Positions 1-6,491 of a DNA stretch of 21,314 nucleotides are shown piece by piece. Numbering within the stretch: the stretch's first letter is position 1; every line of letters begins with the position of its first letter. The position numbers and the translations under genes were made by a program. The DNA lies in the IMG/VR virus record IMGVR_UViG_2737471853_000012, positions 1 to 21,314 of that record; one strand, written 5' to 3'. Below the pieces are notes generated by a model, which saw only the letters and a program-made list of their open reading frames with translations, ran no database searches and was not told the origin of the DNA. The stretch is from a virus. Its lineage: Duplodnaviria; Heunggongvirae; Uroviricota; Caudoviricetes.

Positions 1-270
1 TCAACCCTTACGGGTCCAGTTGTCCCGCAGCTCGCGATCAACATCGTTATCAGGCAAGTGGTTAACAGTCTGCTGTACATTGCTGGCCTCTTTCGTTGCT
101 TCTACCCGGCGTTCGGCTACTGCTTCAGTCGCTGCGGCCTTTTCTTCGGTTCGCTGCTGGTCTGCTTTCGCTTCCGCTTTGCTGGTACCGCGTGAATGAC
201 CAATGCCAAAAGCACCAGCGATAGCCGCCATTATCAGGGCAGCAATACCGACTATTGTTTCTAATCCCAT
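1..270 (-). CDS. Small lysis-cassette protein with N-terminal transmembrane helix and charged C-terminal tail; putative spanin-like component
   Basis: Complete 89-aa ORF (ATG 268-270, TGA 1-3) directly downstream of the endolysin on the same strand; hydrophobic N-terminus IVGIAALIMAAIAGAFGI then K/E/A-rich segment. Function inferred from position only. Confidence 0.4.
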   Translation of the reverse strand: MGLETIVGIAALIMAAIAGAFGIGHSRGTSKAEAKADQQRTEEKAAATEAVAERRVEATKEASNVQQTVNHLPDNDVDRELRDNWTRKG

Positions 271-277
271 ATCAACC

Positions 278-904
278 TCACATCAGTACCGTTTTGGCCT
301 GACCGAAGCGAGCGCGACGATCTTCAAGTCCGTTCGTGCCGCCGTTGATAACCTTCGTCACATGTAGCAGGTTATCTGAATAGTTCAAACATCCCTTTGT
401 AACAAAGAACCATGCCGCGCTTCTGGCTGCATAAATGGGTTCGGCTAATAGCTCAGGCTGTTGCACCAGATCAACCTTCAGGGCATTGCCGCAGTCACGA
501 TAGTTATCCATGAACGTGATGCCAATGAGTCCACGCCCACGGTATTTCCATCCATCACCTGGCGCGTTGTTACCGTAGCGTTTGCTGTATACCAGGTTAG
601 CAATGGCACGCTGACGCTCAATTGGTAATGCTCGTTCATCAGGTCGGCGACCCAGCGTATTAGCCTGGTCCTGTGTGATTCGTCCAGCTCGAATGAAGTT
701 TGCCAACCCGACTACGCTGTAATTGAAGTTTTCCTGTAGCCGGGTGAATCCTGTCGACTCATGCCCAGCCTGCGCAATGAACATGGCCTGGTCTACCGGC
801 TTGGTGATGCCGAACTCTTTCATCGCATCACTTACTGGCTGAAACCAGAGCGCAGCTAACTCGGCGCTTAGCCCAGCCGCCTTTTGAAATTGTGATTGGT
901 TCAT
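278..904 (-). CDS. Phage endolysin, glycoside hydrolase family 19 (chitinase-like lysozyme)
   Basis: 208-aa ORF whose translation carries GH19-type endolysin motifs as recalled from memory ([41 protein letters not shown]); sits right after the holin genes; start ATG overlaps upstream stop (TAATG). Confidence 0.8.
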
Positions 905-1185
905 TAGTGCCTCAGTGCATCAACCAGGCGCGCTACATTTCCCCGAGCCCAGAGAACGGCAGCGCATATCAGGACGTTCACCAGCACCACAAACCAGTGT
1001 GGTTCATGGTACAGGCCAAACAGGTAACGGAAAGGGACGCTGGCGTATACCAGCACCGTGAAATAAGCCATCAGCGATATCAGTGGGCGATGTCTCGCCC
1101 CGCCGCGCTGGTAGAACATCAGTGCAATAACGATAACAGCAGAGATAATTGCGTTTGCCATCGCACTCGGATCACTTGTTACCAT
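904..1185 (-). CDS. Holin-like / lysis-associated membrane protein
   Basis: Hydrophobic multi-TM ORF between holin and endolysin. Start placed at internal ATG 1183-1185, preceded by GGAGGGG; the ORF-track start at 1224 is a TTG. Overlaps upstream holin stop by 14 nt. Confidence 0.5.
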
Positions 1186-1567
1186 TGCTGGCCCCTCCAC
1201 CACGTAAACGCGAGAGAATTCCAAACAGGCTACCCAAATCCTGGCTGTTAACGAACGTCAGCAGCTTAATAGCAATAGCGGCTACGATTACCGCACCCAG
1301 CGCATCAAGTGGCCTGTCGCTATACCCCGTCCATTTGGAGAAGTAAGAGCCAAGCAGTGGAGCGCCGATAACGCCGAAGATGAATGAGGTGATGAAGTAG
1401 CCTACCAGCTTAAGACGGCTGATATTAACCGCCGTAGCGACGTAGAACACCGCGCCAGCGAATGCGCCAAAAACCACACCGTAATCTATGCCGGTTGCCA
1501 GGCCGAACATGCTGGCACCCATCAGACCACCAGCCGCTACCGTAGTGCCAGAAACAGGATCGGACAT
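1172..1567 (-). CDS. Phage holin
   Basis: 131-aa ORF with Gly/Ala-rich transmembrane segments, first gene after the tR'-like terminator and ahead of the endolysin; RBS GAGGGGG 5 nt upstream of ATG. Confidence 0.6.
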   Translation of the reverse strand: MSDPVSGTTVAAGGLMGASMFGLATGIDYGVVFGAFAGAVFYVATAVNISRLKLVGYFITSFIFGVIGAPLLGSYFSKWTGYSDRPLDALGAVIVAAIAIKLLTFVNSQDLGSLFGILSRLRGGGASNGNK

Positions 1568-1610
1568 TTAGCCCCCTCTTATTGCTGTGAGTCCTCTCAG
1601 AGTGAGGGGA

Positions 1611-1635
1611 AACAAAAAAGCCCCCAGTTGGGGGC
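1611..1635 (-). terminator. Intrinsic terminator on minus strand, candidate tR' (late-operon terminator read through by Q)
   Basis: On the minus strand: GCCCCC-AACT-GGGGGC hairpin (1620-1635) followed by TTTTTTGTTT (1611-1619), about 45 nt upstream of the holin start. Confidence 0.55.
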
Positions 1636-1821
1636 CATATGAAATGATAGTTTTATGTATTCATACCCTTCGAAATGCTTAAGCACATGTCTAAATCACA
1701 ACTCTTAGCATAGTAAGATAAAAAATGCGGACCGCGTTACTTTTTTTTGCTATGATGGAAGAACTCACATCATCTATGGCATGGGCTATCAAATTCAACT
1801 AAAACATCGAGATATAAATCA

Positions 1822-2118
1822 ATGAAATCAGTAATCTACGTAGAAAATTCTGATGAGGTTGAAGTTATTGGTAATTTTTCTAATATTGAAGCGCCATTAC
1901 TCGTAGCAAAAAATATAAAAAAACTCACCGCACAAAAAAACATTTGCACCAGTAATTCAACGCATTACGAAGTTGAAGATTGCGGAGAACTTATAGCTGA
2001 GAGTAATGTGGATTTAAAAAAACATAAAAACAAGAGGGTTAGTTTAACTGATGCCACACCTCGCTTTAAAGCGTCGATAGTTTATATATTAGTAATGAGA
2101 GCCATATATGGAAAATAA
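1822..2118 (+). CDS. Hypothetical protein in AT-rich island (moron candidate)
   Basis: 98-aa ORF in a markedly AT-rich segment (about 1640-2440) on the strand opposite to the flanking Q and lysis genes; no strong RBS seen. Confidence 0.4.
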   Translation: MKSVIYVENSDEVEVIGNFSNIEAPLLVAKNIKKLTAQKNICTSNSTHYEVEDCGELIAESNVDLKKHKNKRVSLTDATPRFKASIVYILVMRAIYGK

Positions 2119-2392
2119 TGACAAACCAATGTTTAAACTAAAGAATATTGACAAGGTCAATTTAAACAAAAACTCAACAACATCTAACACTCTTGCTAAC
2201 GCAGAAAACATTAAAGAATTTACTGCAAAAAATAATCAGGCAGGCTCAAATAGAAACGAAGACAAAAATAAAGACATTTCAAAAACCAGAAAAATTTATA
2301 ACTTCATTCTTAAAAACTCATGGACTATCTGCATTGCAGTTATAAGTGCAATTATAGTGGCGATAATAAAAACAAAACTTAATATCCCGTGA
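2108..2392 (+). CDS. Hypothetical Asn/Lys-rich protein with C-terminal transmembrane anchor (moron candidate)
   Basis: 94-aa ORF overlapping the previous ORF by 11 nt; C-terminal hydrophobic stretch WTICIAVISAIIVAIIKT; same AT-rich island. Confidence 0.4.
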   Translation: MENNDKPMFKLKNIDKVNLNKNSTTSNTLANAENIKEFTAKNNQAGSNRNEDKNKDISKTRKIYNFILKNSWTICIAVISAIIVAIIKTKLNIP

Positions 2393-2439
2393 CATCTTAA
2401 TAAAGCGGCGCTCATTAATAATTAGCACCGCTTCTTCTA

Positions 2440-2802
2440 TCAATCCATATTTAGTTTAATATCAAGCATTGAAAGGCAGCCATCAATAAACCCTTCTGCC
2501 ATCTGTATCTCAATGCGTATCAGCTTCTCGTCCTTCTTTCGCGCTTTGGCTATTTTCCGCTTCGAGATTCCAAAGAGATAGTGTGCAACCAAGAGCGAAT
2601 GTTCATATGGCTTTCGTTTTTGAAGTCGAGCTAAACACCCTTCGATAATCAGAGCGTCGTCGTCAGTGCAAGAAAGTCGGGATTTACTTGTTTGAGGAAG
2701 AAGCCCTTTGAAACCAGCCGCGATTGGTGAGTAATCCACGCCAGAGCTATCGCTCGCGGCCCATCCCCCCCAACGCTCTAACACCATCTGAATATCACGC
2801 AT
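2440..2802 (-). CDS. Late-gene antitermination protein Q (phage 82 / QuuD type)
   Basis: 120-aa ORF starting MRDIQMVLERWGGWAA, with AAGFKGLL and HYLFGISKRKIAKARKK segments matching the 82-type Q family as recalled; lies just before the tR'/lysis cassette. Confidence 0.8.
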   Translation of the reverse strand: MRDIQMVLERWGGWAASDSSGVDYSPIAAGFKGLLPQTSKSRLSCTDDDALIIEGCLARLQKRKPYEHSLLVAHYLFGISKRKIAKARKKDEKLIRIEIQMAEGFIDGCLSMLDIKLNMD

Positions 2803-2819
2803 ATATTTTCTCCATACAA

Positions 2820-3881
2820 TTATGCTTTTGTTATTACGCCGATCGCCAGCGCTCGATTCATAAACCGGAATAGCAGCTCCAGCTGGGTACCGTGTTTTTT
2901 CTCGAACGCTGCAACATCAGCATGTAATTTGTCGTGACACTCTCTGCACAGAGGGATCACAAACAAATCGTGGGCTTTAGTGGCGGTACCGCCCATGCCG
3001 TGACCAATGACATGGTGTGGATCATCCGCTGGCCGCCGGCAACCTTCACAGGGCTGGGTTTTAACCCACCGGGTATAGTCCTCATTCACCCACCTGCGGT
3101 GTTTTGGGCGCAACATGTAGGATTCAGGGGATTCAGGATCCGCATGCAGAGCCAGAACCTTTGGCTGTTCATAGGCTACTTCCTGATTTGCTCCATGCTT
3201 TAATTTCGCAGCCGTGACCGCAGGGGTGACCTTCTTCTGCAAAATTCTTTTTGCCGGGGGCATCGGCACAATGTCACTTTCTCGATATACGGATAAAAAC
3301 GGCTCATCAGGTAAGCGAAGCGCATGCTGGGCCATCCTTTCCGTGATTGCATCAGCAATGCCTGAATAAACGGCCCACCAGCACAACTCACCGAGGGATA
3401 GTTCACGCTCGTTGTTGTAGCCAAGCGAAGACAGGATGGAACTGATCAGCCAGTTAATGAGATTACGCCGGGCCAGTTCTGCCAGCGCCGCGGTGGTTTG
3501 CTCGCGCAGCTGGTTATCGCAATGCCAACAGAGCATCATTGATCCAGGGGGATGTCGCATCGTTACCAGCTCATGATGGTGATAATCAGTGTGCGGGTAC
3601 TGGCATTCCTTCACGTTACGCTCTAACCAGGATTCCAGCGCGGTCAAACCGCCTGCTGCACGGATAACTCTCTCGTCGGTGAAAAATCCCTCGAGGGACT
3701 TATCTTCTGCCAGCGGCTGCCTGGCATCAGGGACGAGCCCCGACGGAAGCCCGGCCATGCTTTTCGGCTGAGGCTCCACCAGCACACGCCCCTGTTGAAA
3801 CAGAGACATCAGTTCGCTACCCGGCTTTAACACCACAAGCCCAAGGCGCGGAACAGTCTCGGCAGTAAACAGTCCTCTCAC
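2820..3881 (-). CDS. DUF968 (YdfU-like) lambdoid protein with C-terminal HNH-like Cys/His motif
   Basis: 353-aa ORF; C-terminus CEGCRRPADDPHHVIGHGMGGTATKAHDLFVIPLCRECHDKLH resembles YdfU/NinG-type zinc-binding HNH-like region; GTG start overlapping upstream stop. Confidence 0.6.
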   Translation of the reverse strand: MRGLFTAETVPRLGLVVLKPGSELMSLFQQGRVLVEPQPKSMAGLPSGLVPDARQPLAEDKSLEGFFTDERVIRAAGGLTALESWLERNVKECQYPHTDYHHHELVTMRHPPGSMMLCWHCDNQLREQTTAALAELARRNLINWLISSILSSLGYNNERELSLGELCWWAVYSGIADAITERMAQHALRLPDEPFLSVYRESDIVPMPPAKRILQKKVTPAVTAAKLKHGANQEVAYEQPKVLALHADPESPESYMLRPKHRRWVNEDYTRWVKTQPCEGCRRPADDPHHVIGHGMGGTATKAHDLFVIPLCRECHDKLHADVAAFEKKHGTQLELLFRFMNRALAIGVITKA

Positions 3882-4534
3882 GCGGCATGCCCCTTAGCGA
3901 TGTGTGCCGTCCACATGCCGCCGATCCACTCGATGCCTTTGGGCGTAAAACGTGCCTGGCTAAAGGCGTAGTTTGTTTCGCTCGTGGTGCCAGTTTTCAC
4001 TTCAAACCGCCCGGCAGCAATGTGCTGGTGCTGATATACATACTTACCCGCCAGCTCTGCTTTCACGTCCTGTGCCGCCAGCCATATCAGTTTCTTCAGC
4101 CGCTCCATCGTCTTGCCGGCCACTTTCTTAGCGCCGAGTTGATCACGGAATTCTTCCCATGCCCACTGTGTTATCGCTACCTGATACTCAAAGCGGATAT
4201 TGTCGCTGTAGTTCCACAGCAACCAGGATTTCTGGTGGTCTTCCAGCGACAGGAGGGCGCGGCGCCAGCTGGCTGTCGAGTATTCAACGGGCAGAACGAG
4301 AGCGATTGAGGAACCCTTAGCGCGGGACTGGCTGCCGCTCATCGGCGGTCCATCCGGGTTAACCATTTTTTGCTTCACCTCGCTATACACCTTCTTCCGG
4401 CCACGGCTGCGCGCCGTAGCGGTAAATTGCGCGTTCTCTGCAAAAGCTACCAGTTGCCCTTTCGTCGCACCACTCAGATCGGCGGTGGCCACTATCAGCT
4501 GCTGGCGAACAAATTCCAAGTATTGAGCTGTCAT
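3878..4534 (-). CDS. Conserved lambdoid late-region protein; possibly antitermination-like (QuuQ/PF03589-type), function uncertain
   Basis: 218-aa ORF between the ylcG-like gene and the DUF968 gene, coupled at both ends by ATGA/GTGA overlaps. Family assignment is by recollection of synteny only. Confidence 0.4.
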   Translation of the reverse strand: MTAQYLEFVRQQLIVATADLSGATKGQLVAFAENAQFTATARSRGRKKVYSEVKQKMVNPDGPPMSGSQSRAKGSSIALVLPVEYSTASWRRALLSLEDHQKSWLLWNYSDNIRFEYQVAITQWAWEEFRDQLGAKKVAGKTMERLKKLIWLAAQDVKAELAGKYVYQHQHIAAGRFEVKTGTTSETNYAFSQARFTPKGIEWIGGMWTAHIAKGHAA

Positions 4535-4671
4535 GCTGCTTCTCCCAGGCGCTTATAGATACGGACGAAATTGCGTAATATTTTGTAGTCGACCAGCACG
4601 GTGCCGCGGCTACGCAGGAGGCGAAGCTTTTGCCAGCGGTCGCGGATGCGTTCGATAACGTCACGGCTCAT
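4531..4671 (-). CDS. YlcG-like small basic protein (46 aa)
   Basis: ORF below the track's 60-aa cut-off, hand-translated as [46 protein letters not shown]; ATGA overlaps with rusA stop upstream and with the next gene start; same size and position as ylcG in DLP12-like prophages. Confidence 0.45.
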
Positions 4672-5030
4672 GCGGACTCCATTTCAGTAATGGTTAGCTC
4701 AAGCCGCCCACCTTTGACGACAGGCATTCTCTTCACGCTGTAGTAGTCAACCTGCTGGTCATCGAGCCAGAAACCCGATTTCGTCAGGGCGTCGAATGCT
4801 GCCTTTTGCAGATTGTCCAGGTCACGGCGCCGGCGATCCGGCATGTGACACTCAATACGGATTTTCAATGGCGTGGCCAGGCCGATATCAAGCATCGAGT
4901 CTTTGATGATTCTGGCGACGCTGTCGCGGTATGCCTGCCCTTCCGCGCTGATGTGTGTGCGTCCCCGGTTGTGCCGGTAGTAGCGGTTGTTGCTTGGCGG
5001 CCAGGGTAATGAAATGCGATATTGGTTCAT
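4668..5030 (-). CDS. rusA: Crossover junction endodeoxyribonuclease RusA (Holliday junction resolvase)
   Basis: 120-aa product from internal ATG ([26 protein letters not shown]...[25 protein letters not shown]) is near-identical in motifs to E. coli RusA as recalled; the longer ORF-track start is rejected because this ATG overlaps the upstream stop (ATGA). Confidence 0.9.
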
Positions 5031-5317
5031 GCTTTTATCAACCCCTCTTTCATCCAGATAACCTGCGTTCTGGCCATTCCCTCCAGCGCGCACTCCTTCG
5101 CATACTCCGCATCTACCAGGCGCGTGCGGCGGTCTATTTCATCGTGACAGGATGAACAGGCGATAGCGGCGAGCAGATCAGGCGGCTTAATCCCCGTCCC
5201 GCACAATCCAGCAATGCGGATATGGGCCAATACCGTGGTTTCAGGGTTGCCGTTGCAGACGCCCGGGATGCGAACCTGGCATTCACGACCGCGAGCTGCT
5301 TTACGAAGATTGGCCAT
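5027..5317 (-). CDS. DUF1364 (YbcO-like) protein, putative nuclease
   Basis: 96-aa product from ATG 5315-5317 ([34 protein letters not shown]...), Cys-rich; RBS GGGGGTGAGC upstream; synteny with rusA as in DLP12. Confidence 0.6.
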
Positions 5318-5319
5318 GC

Positions 5320-5529
5320 TCACCCCCATATACGTTGACGAAGTGATCGCGGAGTATGCTCCGGGCGAACACAAACCGGCAGCCGGGCGCTGACCGTCCA
5401 ACTCAGATAATCCGCGTTAAGGCTTTTCTCTGTGACAATGCCTCGCGCCTGATATCTGGACACTAACTGTTCGGCCTGCTCGGTTGTGCAGTCGGGATGC
5501 TGGAACCATGAGTATTTCATCGCCATCAC
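5320..5529 (-). CDS. Hypothetical nin-region protein
   Basis: 69-aa ORF in an operon-like chain between the 198-aa gene and the ybcO-like gene; no recognised motif. Confidence 0.4.
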   Translation of the reverse strand: MMAMKYSWFQHPDCTTEQAEQLVSRYQARGIVTEKSLNADYLSWTVSARLPVCVRPEHTPRSLRQRIWG

Positions 5530-6122
5530 CCCGCAAAGCTCAGCAGCTGACTGGCGGCGTTTTCAGCCTCAGCCGGCGAGTGGAACTTGCGACGCAGAAT
5601 GTAGTTCCAAAGCACATTCAGCACTGATTTGTAGACGCCGTTAAACTGGCTGTCGTCCATGCTGGCGAAGGAGATCGACTTTGCGACACGACGACGGCTG
5701 CCGTCAGGCATCTGGTATTCGTCATAAAAGCCAGCCTGAATGGTTGCCCACTCGCGGAAGGATTCGAAGTGTTTCAGCAGCGCCATATCGCGGGAACGGG
5801 ATATACCGACCGAGGAGAGATACATCTCCGCGGCATTCTGGAGTGCAGCGCGCTGATCGAGGTCGGATGAGAGAAAGTCGATAAAACCGGATATGAGGGT
5901 ACGCTCCGCGGGCTCAATGAGACCACCGGAAGGCGTCCAGTAGTGATACCCGAGAGTCAGAAGTTTGAAGAACTTCTTGTGGAATGCGTAATTCCTGGGC
6001 TTGCGGAACTCACCGCAAAGCAGTTGCCCTACGGGGATAAGTTGCAGGTATTCGCTGGTTCCCGGCTCTGCGGGAATCAGTACGTTTTGATAACTTTTCT
6101 CAAATTGCAGTGTTTGCGCCAT
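5526..6122 (-). CDS. Conserved lambdoid nin-region protein (family not confidently identified)
   Basis: 198-aa ORF with normal GC content; stop overlaps next gene start. Confidence 0.5.
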   Translation of the reverse strand: MAQTLQFEKSYQNVLIPAEPGTSEYLQLIPVGQLLCGEFRKPRNYAFHKKFFKLLTLGYHYWTPSGGLIEPAERTLISGFIDFLSSDLDQRAALQNAAEMYLSSVGISRSRDMALLKHFESFREWATIQAGFYDEYQMPDGSRRRVAKSISFASMDDSQFNGVYKSVLNVLWNYILRRKFHSPAEAENAASQLLSFAG

Positions 6123-6212: not shown

Positions 6213-6491
6213 CTAATGGGTAAATTCCTTGGGAACAGGAGATATACCAGATAGAGAAATTAAATCAGGCAACTCATTGCCATGTAAAGTTCGCCCAACA
6301 CCAACCGCGTAGACTTTGCCATCTACTGGAATCAAATGAACATCATATGAACGATTGAATTGTGCGTTTGGCGGCCGATGACTACTGCCTACTGATGATT
6401 CAAAAATAGTCAACCTGCTTTTTAATTCTGTATCTTCATGGATTTCTCCATCACGCCCGTATCCTACTAGCAAATATTGAATTTTATTCAT
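6213..6491 (-). CDS. Small hypothetical protein, AT-rich, apparent paralog of the 6771-7019 product
   Basis: 92-aa product from ATG 6489-6491 preceded by GAGGGTGAA; the longer ORF-track start would overlap the upstream gene. Shares YxLL..G and DVH(L/I)..D.G..V segments with the 82-aa protein. Confidence 0.45.
   Translation of the reverse strand: MNKIQYLLVGYGRDGEIHEDTELKSRLTIFESSVGSSHRPPNAQFNRSYDVHLIPVDGKVYAVGVGRTLHGNELPDLISLSGISPVPKEFTH

Follow-up and report, generated by a model that had tools for sequence, protein, structure and literature searches.

Accessory genes of lambdoid and other phages have been described in several settings. Morons, as described by Hendrix and colleagues (HK97 gp15, lambda bor and lom), share promoter- and terminator-like signals, a deviant base composition and a patchy presence. 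In Shiga toxin (Stx) phages such as Sp5 and the 933W-like phages, tRNAs and stx lie downstream of the late promoter PR' and depend on the late-gene antiterminator Q. In P2-like phages and P4-like satellites, hotspots at a fixed position hold many mutually exclusive cargos of low guanine-plus-cytosine (GC) content, a sizeable fraction of which match defense systems (PMC9122126). Here we analyze an AT-rich island carrying two small open reading frames (ORFs), ORF1 and ORF2, that lies between Q and the lysis genes in a 21,314-nucleotide stretch of viral DNA (IMG/VR record IMGVR_UViG_2737471853_000012, positions 1 to 21,314; hereafter the window). An element of this kind is known, as a moron or a prophage hotspot, and its closest precedent is the porin gene nmpC in the cryptic E. 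coli K-12 prophage DLP12; the gene pair itself is uncharacterized.

The stretch from ~1757 to 2436 is very probably an autonomous plus-strand accessory cassette inserted between the stop codon of Q and PR' (Table 1). In the arrangement that we propose, the cassette would be served by an extended -10 promoter (1748-1756) and a hairpin terminator (2402-2434), both its own, and its two genes would be coupled in translation. PR' would read leftward and comprise an A-tract, the palindrome GCGGTCCGCA, the -10 element TACTAT and a start near 1703, followed by a leader of ~92 nucleotides (nt), the terminator tR' (1636-1619) and a holin gene. The slot and the orientation are those of nmpC in DLP12, which lies on the opposite strand between the PF06530 gene quuD and a TAnnnT-G-n-TAAGAGTGGTTAC...CTTAA-terminator block upstream of the lysis genes. 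That occupant, however, is an unrelated single gene for an outer-membrane porin (a pseudogene in E. coli K-12), and the palindrome there is TACGTACGTA rather than GCGGTCCGCA. A relative of nmpC is the lc porin gene of phage PA-2. Stx phages, whose Q933W belongs to the same Pfam family as the window Q (10.1101/651190), have a homologous promoter and leader, with a 10-base-pair (bp) palindrome, 10 bp, TAnnnT, G-n-TAAGAGTGG... and a terminator, but their palindrome overlaps the Q stop codon and leaves no gap. Their cargo follows PR', whereas that of the window precedes it, on the other strand, and is predicted to be independent of Q. The P2 and P4 hotspots belong to another phage group and another position than the present slot, which is defined by an antiterminator gene and its target promoter and whose defense content is known from sequence matches. 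No described moron product is related to the proteins of the cassette, and the searchable literature yielded nothing specific that describes the gap between Q and PR' as a hotspot or that describes the DLP12 late promoter.

Among alleles of the island, a non-coding block of 55-70 nt (1698-1752) is better conserved than the ORFs, and a distant-mode search with the island DNA matched this 55-nt promoter block only. Phages cdtI, mEp390 and SfIV and an E. coli prophage also have the block, placed between wholly different opposite-strand genes and the late genes. We compared the interval between Q and the lysis genes in 80 viral contigs whose Q is at least 73% identical to that of the window, allowing up to 2 mismatches in the core TAACGCGGTCCGCA. 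The core was found downstream of Q in 77 of the 80, against a chance expectation that we estimate at ~0.02 per locus, and two of the three contigs that miss it have less than 2 kb of sequence downstream. Its distance from Q is 692-2751 bp in 76 of the 77 and 37 bp in the other (L097); in the window, 700 bp separate it from the Q stop codon, and PR' is thus not adjacent to Q. Sixty-one distinct versions of the block align without gaps as an A-tract, TaaCGCGGTCCGCA, 10 variable bp, TAnnnT, G, n and TAAGAGTgGT..CT.cG.CAC....CTTAA, with the core invariant throughout. In TAnnnT, the three inner bases vary and the T, A and T around them do not, which is the signature of a sigma-70 -10 element.

Homology to a mapped promoter points the same way. 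With its downstream half, the block has matches in 205 phage records, among them phage 434 and over 100 Stx1a- or Stx2a-converting phages. In VT2phi_272 and Sakai Sp5 the block begins at the stop codon of Q933W, as TACGATCGTA (overlapping the stop), 10 bp, TATCAT, GA and TAAGAGTGG.... For Sp5, the start of PR' has been mapped by differential RNA sequencing (dRNA-seq) and the 3' end of StxS by Term-seq, 258 nt apart (Sy et al., PMC7547250). In the Sp5 sequence, the position 257 nt before the U-tract of its second terminator is the A of TAAG-A-GT, 7 nt past TATCAT. We take the coordinates of two Sp5 genome versions to differ by 142 nt, a figure that would agree with the stx2A coordinates. Judged by this homology, the block at 1739-1701 on the minus strand is the Q-dependent late promoter PR'. 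As it lies between the island and the lysis genes, the island is upstream of PR' and outside the late transcript, and Q-modified polymerase would not cross it.

These results bear on an earlier note on this DNA, which had pictured the island as a classic accessory insertion of the stx or bor type, antisense to the late operon, and had left unclear where the late promoter lay. The accessory insertion stands, but the cargo occupies the gap between Q and PR' and reads away from the late operon. As the note said, the ORFs are on the opposite strand, yet they lie upstream of PR' and so are not antisense to the late transcript. The question of the promoter is answered by homology to the Sp5 PR', which places it at 1739-1701 and not next to Q; the comparison of the Q-to-lysis interval among relatives that the note had called for is the one described above, with the PR' core downstream of Q in 77 of 80 contigs.

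Downstream of the predicted start, the window has just one terminator before the holin gene, a tR'-type hairpin of -14.6 kcal/mol located ~50 nt upstream of the holin start codon (1567) and giving a predicted PR' leader of ~92 nt. Its stem is kept and its loop altered in allele C of the island (see below). A terminator-like hairpin on the Q strand follows the block in all six aligned loci and in most of the listed versions, and late genes of various types come after it. In Sp5 (L106) a good hairpin with a U-tract lies at 1071-1094, ~25-50 nt past the PR' start, and a second terminator at 1274-1305. Since the published StxS 3' end is at this second terminator (258 nt), the effective tR' need not be the hairpin that directly follows the block. 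L097 (2393-2900), the lone locus with the block directly after Q (37 bp), has an AT-rich segment and an opposite-strand ORF of 85 codons downstream of the block, so cargo can sit after PR' too in this phage group.

The block also offers a candidate for the site that Q recognizes. In phages lambda and 21, the Q-binding elements lie between -35 and -10, and that of phage 21 consists of two direct TGAGCA repeats between -25 and -12 (PMC6606751). TGAGCA direct repeats of the phage 21 type are absent from the block, which has instead a palindrome of 9-10 bp at about -32 to -23. The window Q, a member of PF06530, the Q21/Q933W family (Yin et al., 10.1101/651190), is 52% identical to QuuD of DLP12 and matches the structures of phage 21 Q (6p1b and 6jnx) weakly (E 0.0016). 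At a constant 10 bp upstream of the -10 element, the 10 bp read GCGGTCCGCA with the window Q, TACGTACGTA with QuuD of DLP12 and TACGATCGTA with Q933W of Sp5 and VT2phi_272. All three are palindromic and equally spaced, and the -10 element, start region and leader remain homologous. Because the palindrome covaries with Q and occupies the position of known Q-binding elements, it is a candidate Q-binding element, with a palindromic rather than a direct-repeat geometry. Its covariation with Q subtype amounts to a testable prediction of how members of the Q21/Q933W family other than phage 21 Q recognize their promoters, and this prediction covers the clinically relevant Q933W, which controls Shiga toxin. 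A search of the conserved leader (GT..CT.cG.CAC....CTTAA) for a sigma-dependent pause element gave no convincing TAnnnT-like hexamer across the variants. A terminator scan also marked a plus-strand terminator at 1724-1738 (within 1724-1748); it has only -4.6 kcal/mol (z -0.56), is probably incidental and, consisting of the PR' palindrome followed by the complement of the A-tract, is probably not a terminator.

What fills the gap between Q and PR' varies widely. At least 23 unrelated cargo classes can be told apart among the 77 inserts, with a GC content of 31-43% and genes that are nearly all opposite to Q. At least 9 of the ~23 classes match known or candidate anti-phage models in PADLOC, and ~23 of the 77 loci have a strong match when homologous classes are counted. 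The matches are to PDC-S42 (E 2e-27), a PDC-S20/PifA-like KAP NTPase (E 1e-177), an HNH effector/PDC-M68A (E 8e-27), the N-domain of an Argonaute-associated (Aga) restriction endonuclease (E 6e-28), an AriA/PtuA/Old-like ATPase (E 4e-17), a TIR-like effector (E 5e-8) and, weakly, NYN, PDC-S54. Most other classes have no Pfam domain. The commonest cargo, found at 19 of the 77 loci (for example at 32-874 of the L025 insert), encodes a protein of 280 amino acids with no PADLOC or Pfam match above threshold, and the abundant classes represented by L019, L029, L028, L023 and L026 pair a soluble protein of unknown kind with a small multi-pass membrane protein. As the commonest cargo lacks a defense match and nmpC is a porin gene, membership of the slot does not imply defense. 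By its gene content, the slot is a general accessory hotspot with a strong but non-exclusive defense flavor, at which cargo would be exchanged by recombination in the conserved flanks.

In a widespread Q family, then, the gap between Q and PR' holds dozens of mutually exclusive and mostly uncharacterized cargos. The slot can be recognized by two anchors, the 3' end of the Q gene and the invariant 14-mer with its TAnnnTGnTAAGAGT block, and so anchored it is a cheap and well-defined place for mining and testing prophage accessory or defense genes, the very small pair of the window among them.

Six alleles of the window's own cargo were recovered: A (the window and L010-L013), B (L001-L004, ~90% nucleotide identity), C (L005-L009, ~80%), D (L075), E (L099) and F (L103). 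In the contigs of all relatives, ORF1 and ORF2 occur as a pair and in the same place, beside an opposite-strand PF06530 Q of 120 amino acids; the sources are prophages of E. coli and Enterobacter hormaechei and gut metagenomes. Every allele keeps an ORF of ~98-102 codons and one of 92-96 codons with a short overlap (11 nt in the window), even though identity to the window falls from 86 to 28% for ORF1 and from 84 to 36% for ORF2. The ratio of nonsynonymous to synonymous substitution rates (dN/dS, Nei-Gojobori) is 0.33-0.46 for ORF1 and 0.20-0.48 for ORF2. Residues L27, A29, C54, D64, F82, S85, Y96 and G97 of ORF1 are invariant. ORF2 retains an N-terminal RPMFxIK...LxxNxTxS motif, a variable Asn/Lys-rich hydrophilic linker and a C-terminal transmembrane helix at ~71-91, with a 19-residue hydropathy maximum of 2.19 in the window (residues 73-91) and of 1.9-2.3 across alleles; ORF1 has no such segment (maximum 0.94). 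When 1640-2440 was shuffled 2000 times with dinucleotides preserved, one ORF of at least 94 codons arose in 35 shuffles and two in none. By these comparative measures, ORF1 and ORF2 are real, co-inherited protein-coding genes.

Relatives of the pair are few. Word-indexed searches of 5.8 billion proteins returned a handful, all unnamed, with only 7 clusters for ORF2, and an exhaustive profile search of 1.84 billion representatives gave 4 matches to ORF1, of which 3 are true homologs. A repetitive protein of 2533 amino acids (P0013, E 1.7e-4) was rejected as an ORF1 homolog because no repeat of it scores above 5 bits and the bias is 15.9. Neither ORF had anything above noise in Pfam, PADLOC (E <= 0.001) or PHROG, and profile searches against PDB sequences gave E values of 0.9 or more for both. 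As far as these searches reach, the two proteins belong to no described family, and they are uncharacterized and very narrowly distributed.

The cassette appears to bring its own transcription signals. TATGAT (1751-1756) is preceded by TG (1748-1749), which makes a candidate extended -10 element, and lies 17 bp from a weak -35, cGGACc (1728-1733), with a predicted start near 1763; because the -35 is weak, a consensus promoter scan did not call it. TGcTATGAT is shared by alleles A and B and reads TGcTATGCT in C, while D, E and F have TG-associated -10-like hexamers of their own (TATAAT, TAGAGT and CATAAT) in the equivalent stretch, so that in all six alleles such a hexamer is found 75-88 nt or less upstream of ORF1. 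The weak -35 lies inside the palindrome, and the cargo promoter and PR' are therefore back-to-back, with predicted starts ~60 bp apart; one might speculate that the two interfere with each other, or that bound Q represses the cargo promoter. The 5' leader predicted for ORF1 contains a short upstream ORF, MAWAIKFN* (1776-1802, plus strand), which is kept in allele B (MKRTIKFN*) and extended in allele C, where its stop codon and the start codon of ORF1 overlap. A leader peptide, a means of translational coupling and a chance frame are all conceivable.

At the far end, the hairpin between the ORF2 and Q stop codons is stable on both strands, with a folding energy of -17.5 kcal/mol for the Q strand and of -12.4 kcal/mol for the plus strand (z ~-4.4 on both; none of 200 shuffles as stable), with ~5 T in the 8 nt past the stem on either strand. 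A hairpin follows ORF2 in all six alleles, with differing sequences, and nearly all cargo classes have their own, different GC-rich hairpin at that position, flanked by A- and T-runs. L005 and the window have 100% identical Q genes but only 81% identity over the hairpin segment and ~80% from the Q stop to the promoter A-tract, which makes ~1757-2436 the unit of exchange, hairpin included. The hairpin is thus probably the cargo's own bidirectional terminator, and it would insulate the cassette and Q from each other's transcription.

Several further points of the earlier note can be set against these data. The AT-rich island with two overlapping plus-strand ORFs was borne out by the GC scan and the ORF list: at 0.28-0.35 (0.35 at 1601-2000 and 0.30 at 2001-2400, per 400-nt window) its GC content is the minimum of the 21-kb window, which elsewhere ranges over 0.42-0.60. 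The possible -10 noted near 1750 is the TATGAT above, now predicted to belong to an extended -10, and the Asn/Lys-rich protein with a C-terminal transmembrane anchor is ORF2. By the note, loss of the frames in related islands would refute its reading, and both frames are intact in all six alleles. It had further suggested that a hairpin at 2403-2433 could end transcription right after Q; the hairpin is real, but is best read as the bidirectional terminator of the cargo, with a different one in nearly every cargo class. A moron-type accessory insertion between Q and the lysis genes is likewise upheld, given the foreign GC content (0.30-0.35), the cassette's own -10-like element and hairpin, the intact ORFs in relatives, and the replacement of the pair in close relatives, at the same position, by at least 23 alternative cargos.

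Because the cassette lies outside the late transcript, its expression is expected to be independent of Q and most plausibly to occur in the lysogen. With the island predicted to be regulated apart from Q, a phenotype should be sought in lysogens and not only after induction. ORF2 has no signal peptide or lipobox, more Lys and Arg before its helix than after, and 3-7 residues beyond it, and its N-terminal domain is accordingly predicted to be cytoplasmic. AlphaFold models built from shallow alignments place four beta strands in residues 4-59 of ORF1 (predicted local distance difference test, pLDDT, 43) and give ORF2 four short strands followed by a helix at 55-91 with a pLDDT of 70-83 (61.5 overall). 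A repeat-like pattern in ORF1 had raised the idea of a parallel beta-helix, which was dropped as no Pfam beta-helix family matched. When the two profiles were compared by hhalign, residues 21-65 of ORF1 aligned with 3-46 of ORF2 (probability 77%, E 2e-5, 36% identity), an indication that the proteins have a module of ~45 residues in common and may, on that account, form a hetero-complex.

In the mechanism that we favor, the C-terminal helix would anchor ORF2 in the inner membrane and leave its N-terminal domain on the cytoplasmic side, and the soluble, beta-rich ORF1 would probably join ORF2 in a membrane-bound hetero-complex through the shared module. The complex would protect the lysogen against other phages, as a minimal abortive-infection or exclusion module made of a sensor and a membrane effector. 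Everything beyond two co-conserved proteins, one of them membrane-anchored, we infer. We put forward a lysogen-expressed, membrane-tethered, two-protein defense or exclusion module tentatively, as somewhat short of an even bet, whereas for the explanation taken whole (anatomy, slot and function) the balance is about even. It is rather unlikely that the pair is an undescribed two-protein anti-phage module of fewer than 200 amino acids and that, jointly, the gap is an unrecognized defense hotspot and the palindrome a Q-binding site unlike that of phage 21.

By analogy only, the pair recalls RexA and RexB of lambda, a soluble and a membrane protein encoded by a prophage and expressed independently of the lytic genes. 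The likeness does not extend to sequence or fold: RexB is a multi-pass protein, while ORF2 has a single C-terminal helix, and ORF1 and ORF2 are each shorter than 100 amino acids. Among superinfection-exclusion proteins (T4 Imm, HK97 gp15, P22 SieA), the single C-terminal helix of ORF2 and its encoding outside the late transcript would fit; ORF2 shows no Pfam or PHROG similarity to them, and the predicted cytoplasmic position of the bulk of the protein is atypical.

A number of points weigh against this reading. The function proposed for ORF1 and ORF2 is a deduction; neither protein matches a PADLOC, Pfam, PHROG or PDB sequence; both AlphaFold models are of low confidence; and the similarity between the two proteins is moderately supported and could in part reflect shared composition. 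The plus-strand promoter is predicted from sequence and its -35 is weak, as is the ribosome-binding site of ORF1, and H-NS may silence DNA as AT-rich as this. The anchoring of the PR' start leans on homology to Sp5, on a match to a length of 258 nt and on an assumed offset of 142 nt. Finally, the commonest cargo class (19 loci) is without a defense match, and nmpC, the one characterized occupant, encodes a porin.

That last point leads to the alternative that survives best, in which the cassette is a host-fitness or lysogenic-conversion moron bearing, for example, on envelope or stress physiology as nmpC/lc, bor and lom. The porin gene is the sole characterized occupant that we found in the exact slot, the majority of cargo classes are likewise without a defense match, and ORF2 is a membrane protein. 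With its tail anchor, its predicted cytoplasmic domain and its lack of a signal peptide or lipobox, however, ORF2 is unlike surface-exposed conversion factors, its family with ORF1 is tiny and confined to the slot, and the slot is rich in defense-like cargos; we regard this alternative as unlikely.

Less likely again is a role as a toxin-antitoxin or addiction pair, or in modulating lysis by the phage itself, with ORF2 toxic or acting on holin timing and ORF1 neutralizing or regulating it. Two small, overlapping, co-conserved genes, one for a single-pass membrane protein and the two products probably interacting through a shared module, would suit such a role, as would their place beside the lysis genes. 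Yet no toxin or antitoxin family is matched by either protein, the pair is missing from relatives that share the lysis genes, and a cassette outside the late transcript is not co-regulated with lysis. Known type I membrane toxins (Hok, Ldr, TisB) have fewer than 60 amino acids, are mostly hydrophobic helix and are paired with an antisense RNA, whereas ORF2 has 92-96 with a conserved hydrophilic N-terminal domain of 65; its partner ORF1 is protein-coding and under purifying selection, and no Rfam family matched in 1400-3000.

Two remaining alternatives concern the anatomy itself. PR' might lie immediately after Q, as in lambda and the Q933W Stx phages, with the stable hairpin at 2403-2433 as tR' and the ORFs antisense to the late mRNA leader. 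This is highly improbable: the homolog of the mapped Stx-phage PR' is 700 bp from Q, the segment 2393-2440 is specific to the cargo and not linked to Q, and between the Q stop and the hairpin no -10/-35 pair was seen by eye or called by a promoter scan. That the ORFs are chance frames in a non-coding AT-rich spacer, such as H-NS-bound or curved DNA, is scarcely credible despite their low-complexity Asn/Lys-rich sequence, lack of family matches and poor structure models, since both frames persist in alleles as little as 28-36% identical to the window, dN/dS is 0.2-0.5, motifs and a transmembrane helix are conserved, and no shuffle produced two of them.

Table 1. Features of the island, of the predicted late promoter and of the neighboring genes (window coordinates unless another locus is named)
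Feature	Position	Strand	Remarks
PR' upstream part	1726-1748	-	A-tract 1748-1741, then TAACGCGGTCCGCA 1739->1726 containing palindrome GCGGTCCGC(A)
PR' palindrome, candidate Q-binding element	1735-1726	-	L104 (DLP12) ~6226-6235; L106 (Sp5) 1015-1024
PR' -10 element	1715->1710	-	TACTAT, then GC
PR' start region	1707->1701	-	TAAGAGT; predicted late start near 1703
tR'-type intrinsic terminator	1609-1636 (hairpin 1636-1619)	-	GGCCCCC-AACT-GGGGGCT, then TTTTTTGTTT; terminator scan
Candidate cargo promoter	1748-1756	+	extended -10 TGcTATGAT; read from sequence
ORF1	1822-2118	+	98 amino acids, soluble, beta-strand-rich; intact in six alleles
ORF2	2108-2392	+	94 amino acids, tail-anchored membrane protein; intact in six alleles
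Hairpin between ORF2 and Q stops	2402-2434	both	probable bidirectional terminator of cargo
Spanin-like ORF	1-270	-	
GH19 endolysin	278-904	-	
Phage_holin_3_7 gene (Holin_3_7)	904-1224	-	106 amino acids
Phage_holin_8 gene	1172-1567	-	131 amino acids; first late gene, start of lysis cassette; PF16931, E 5e-39
Late-gene antiterminator Q	2440-2802	-	120 amino acids; Q21/Q933W family; PF06530, E 1e-54, positions 1-117/118
DUF968 gene	2820-3881	-	
Second antiterminator-family gene	3878-4534	-	218 amino acids
RusA	4668-5093	-	

Positions 1-6000 of the window make up the end of a lambdoid prophage at which late control and lysis are encoded, and every phage gene there is on the minus strand. When near-identical DNA was sought in 50,697 phage records and 5,426 complete E. 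coli genomes, matches were confined to the holin end and the island had none. The prophage has two antiterminator-family genes in tandem, the one for the 218-amino-acid protein upstream and the PF06530 Q after it. The former is PF06323, which we take to be the Q82-type family, in the identical genes of L005, L007 and L010-L013, and it overlaps the start of the DUF968 gene by 4 nt, leaving no room for a promoter and terminator of its own. At the head of the lysis cassette (904-1567), two unlike holin-family genes, Phage_holin_8 and Phage_holin_3_7, overlap; the same two-holin arrangement is found in mEp390 and in Klebsiella and Enterobacter prophages with other Q types (DUF1133-type in L014, PF06323-type in L015).

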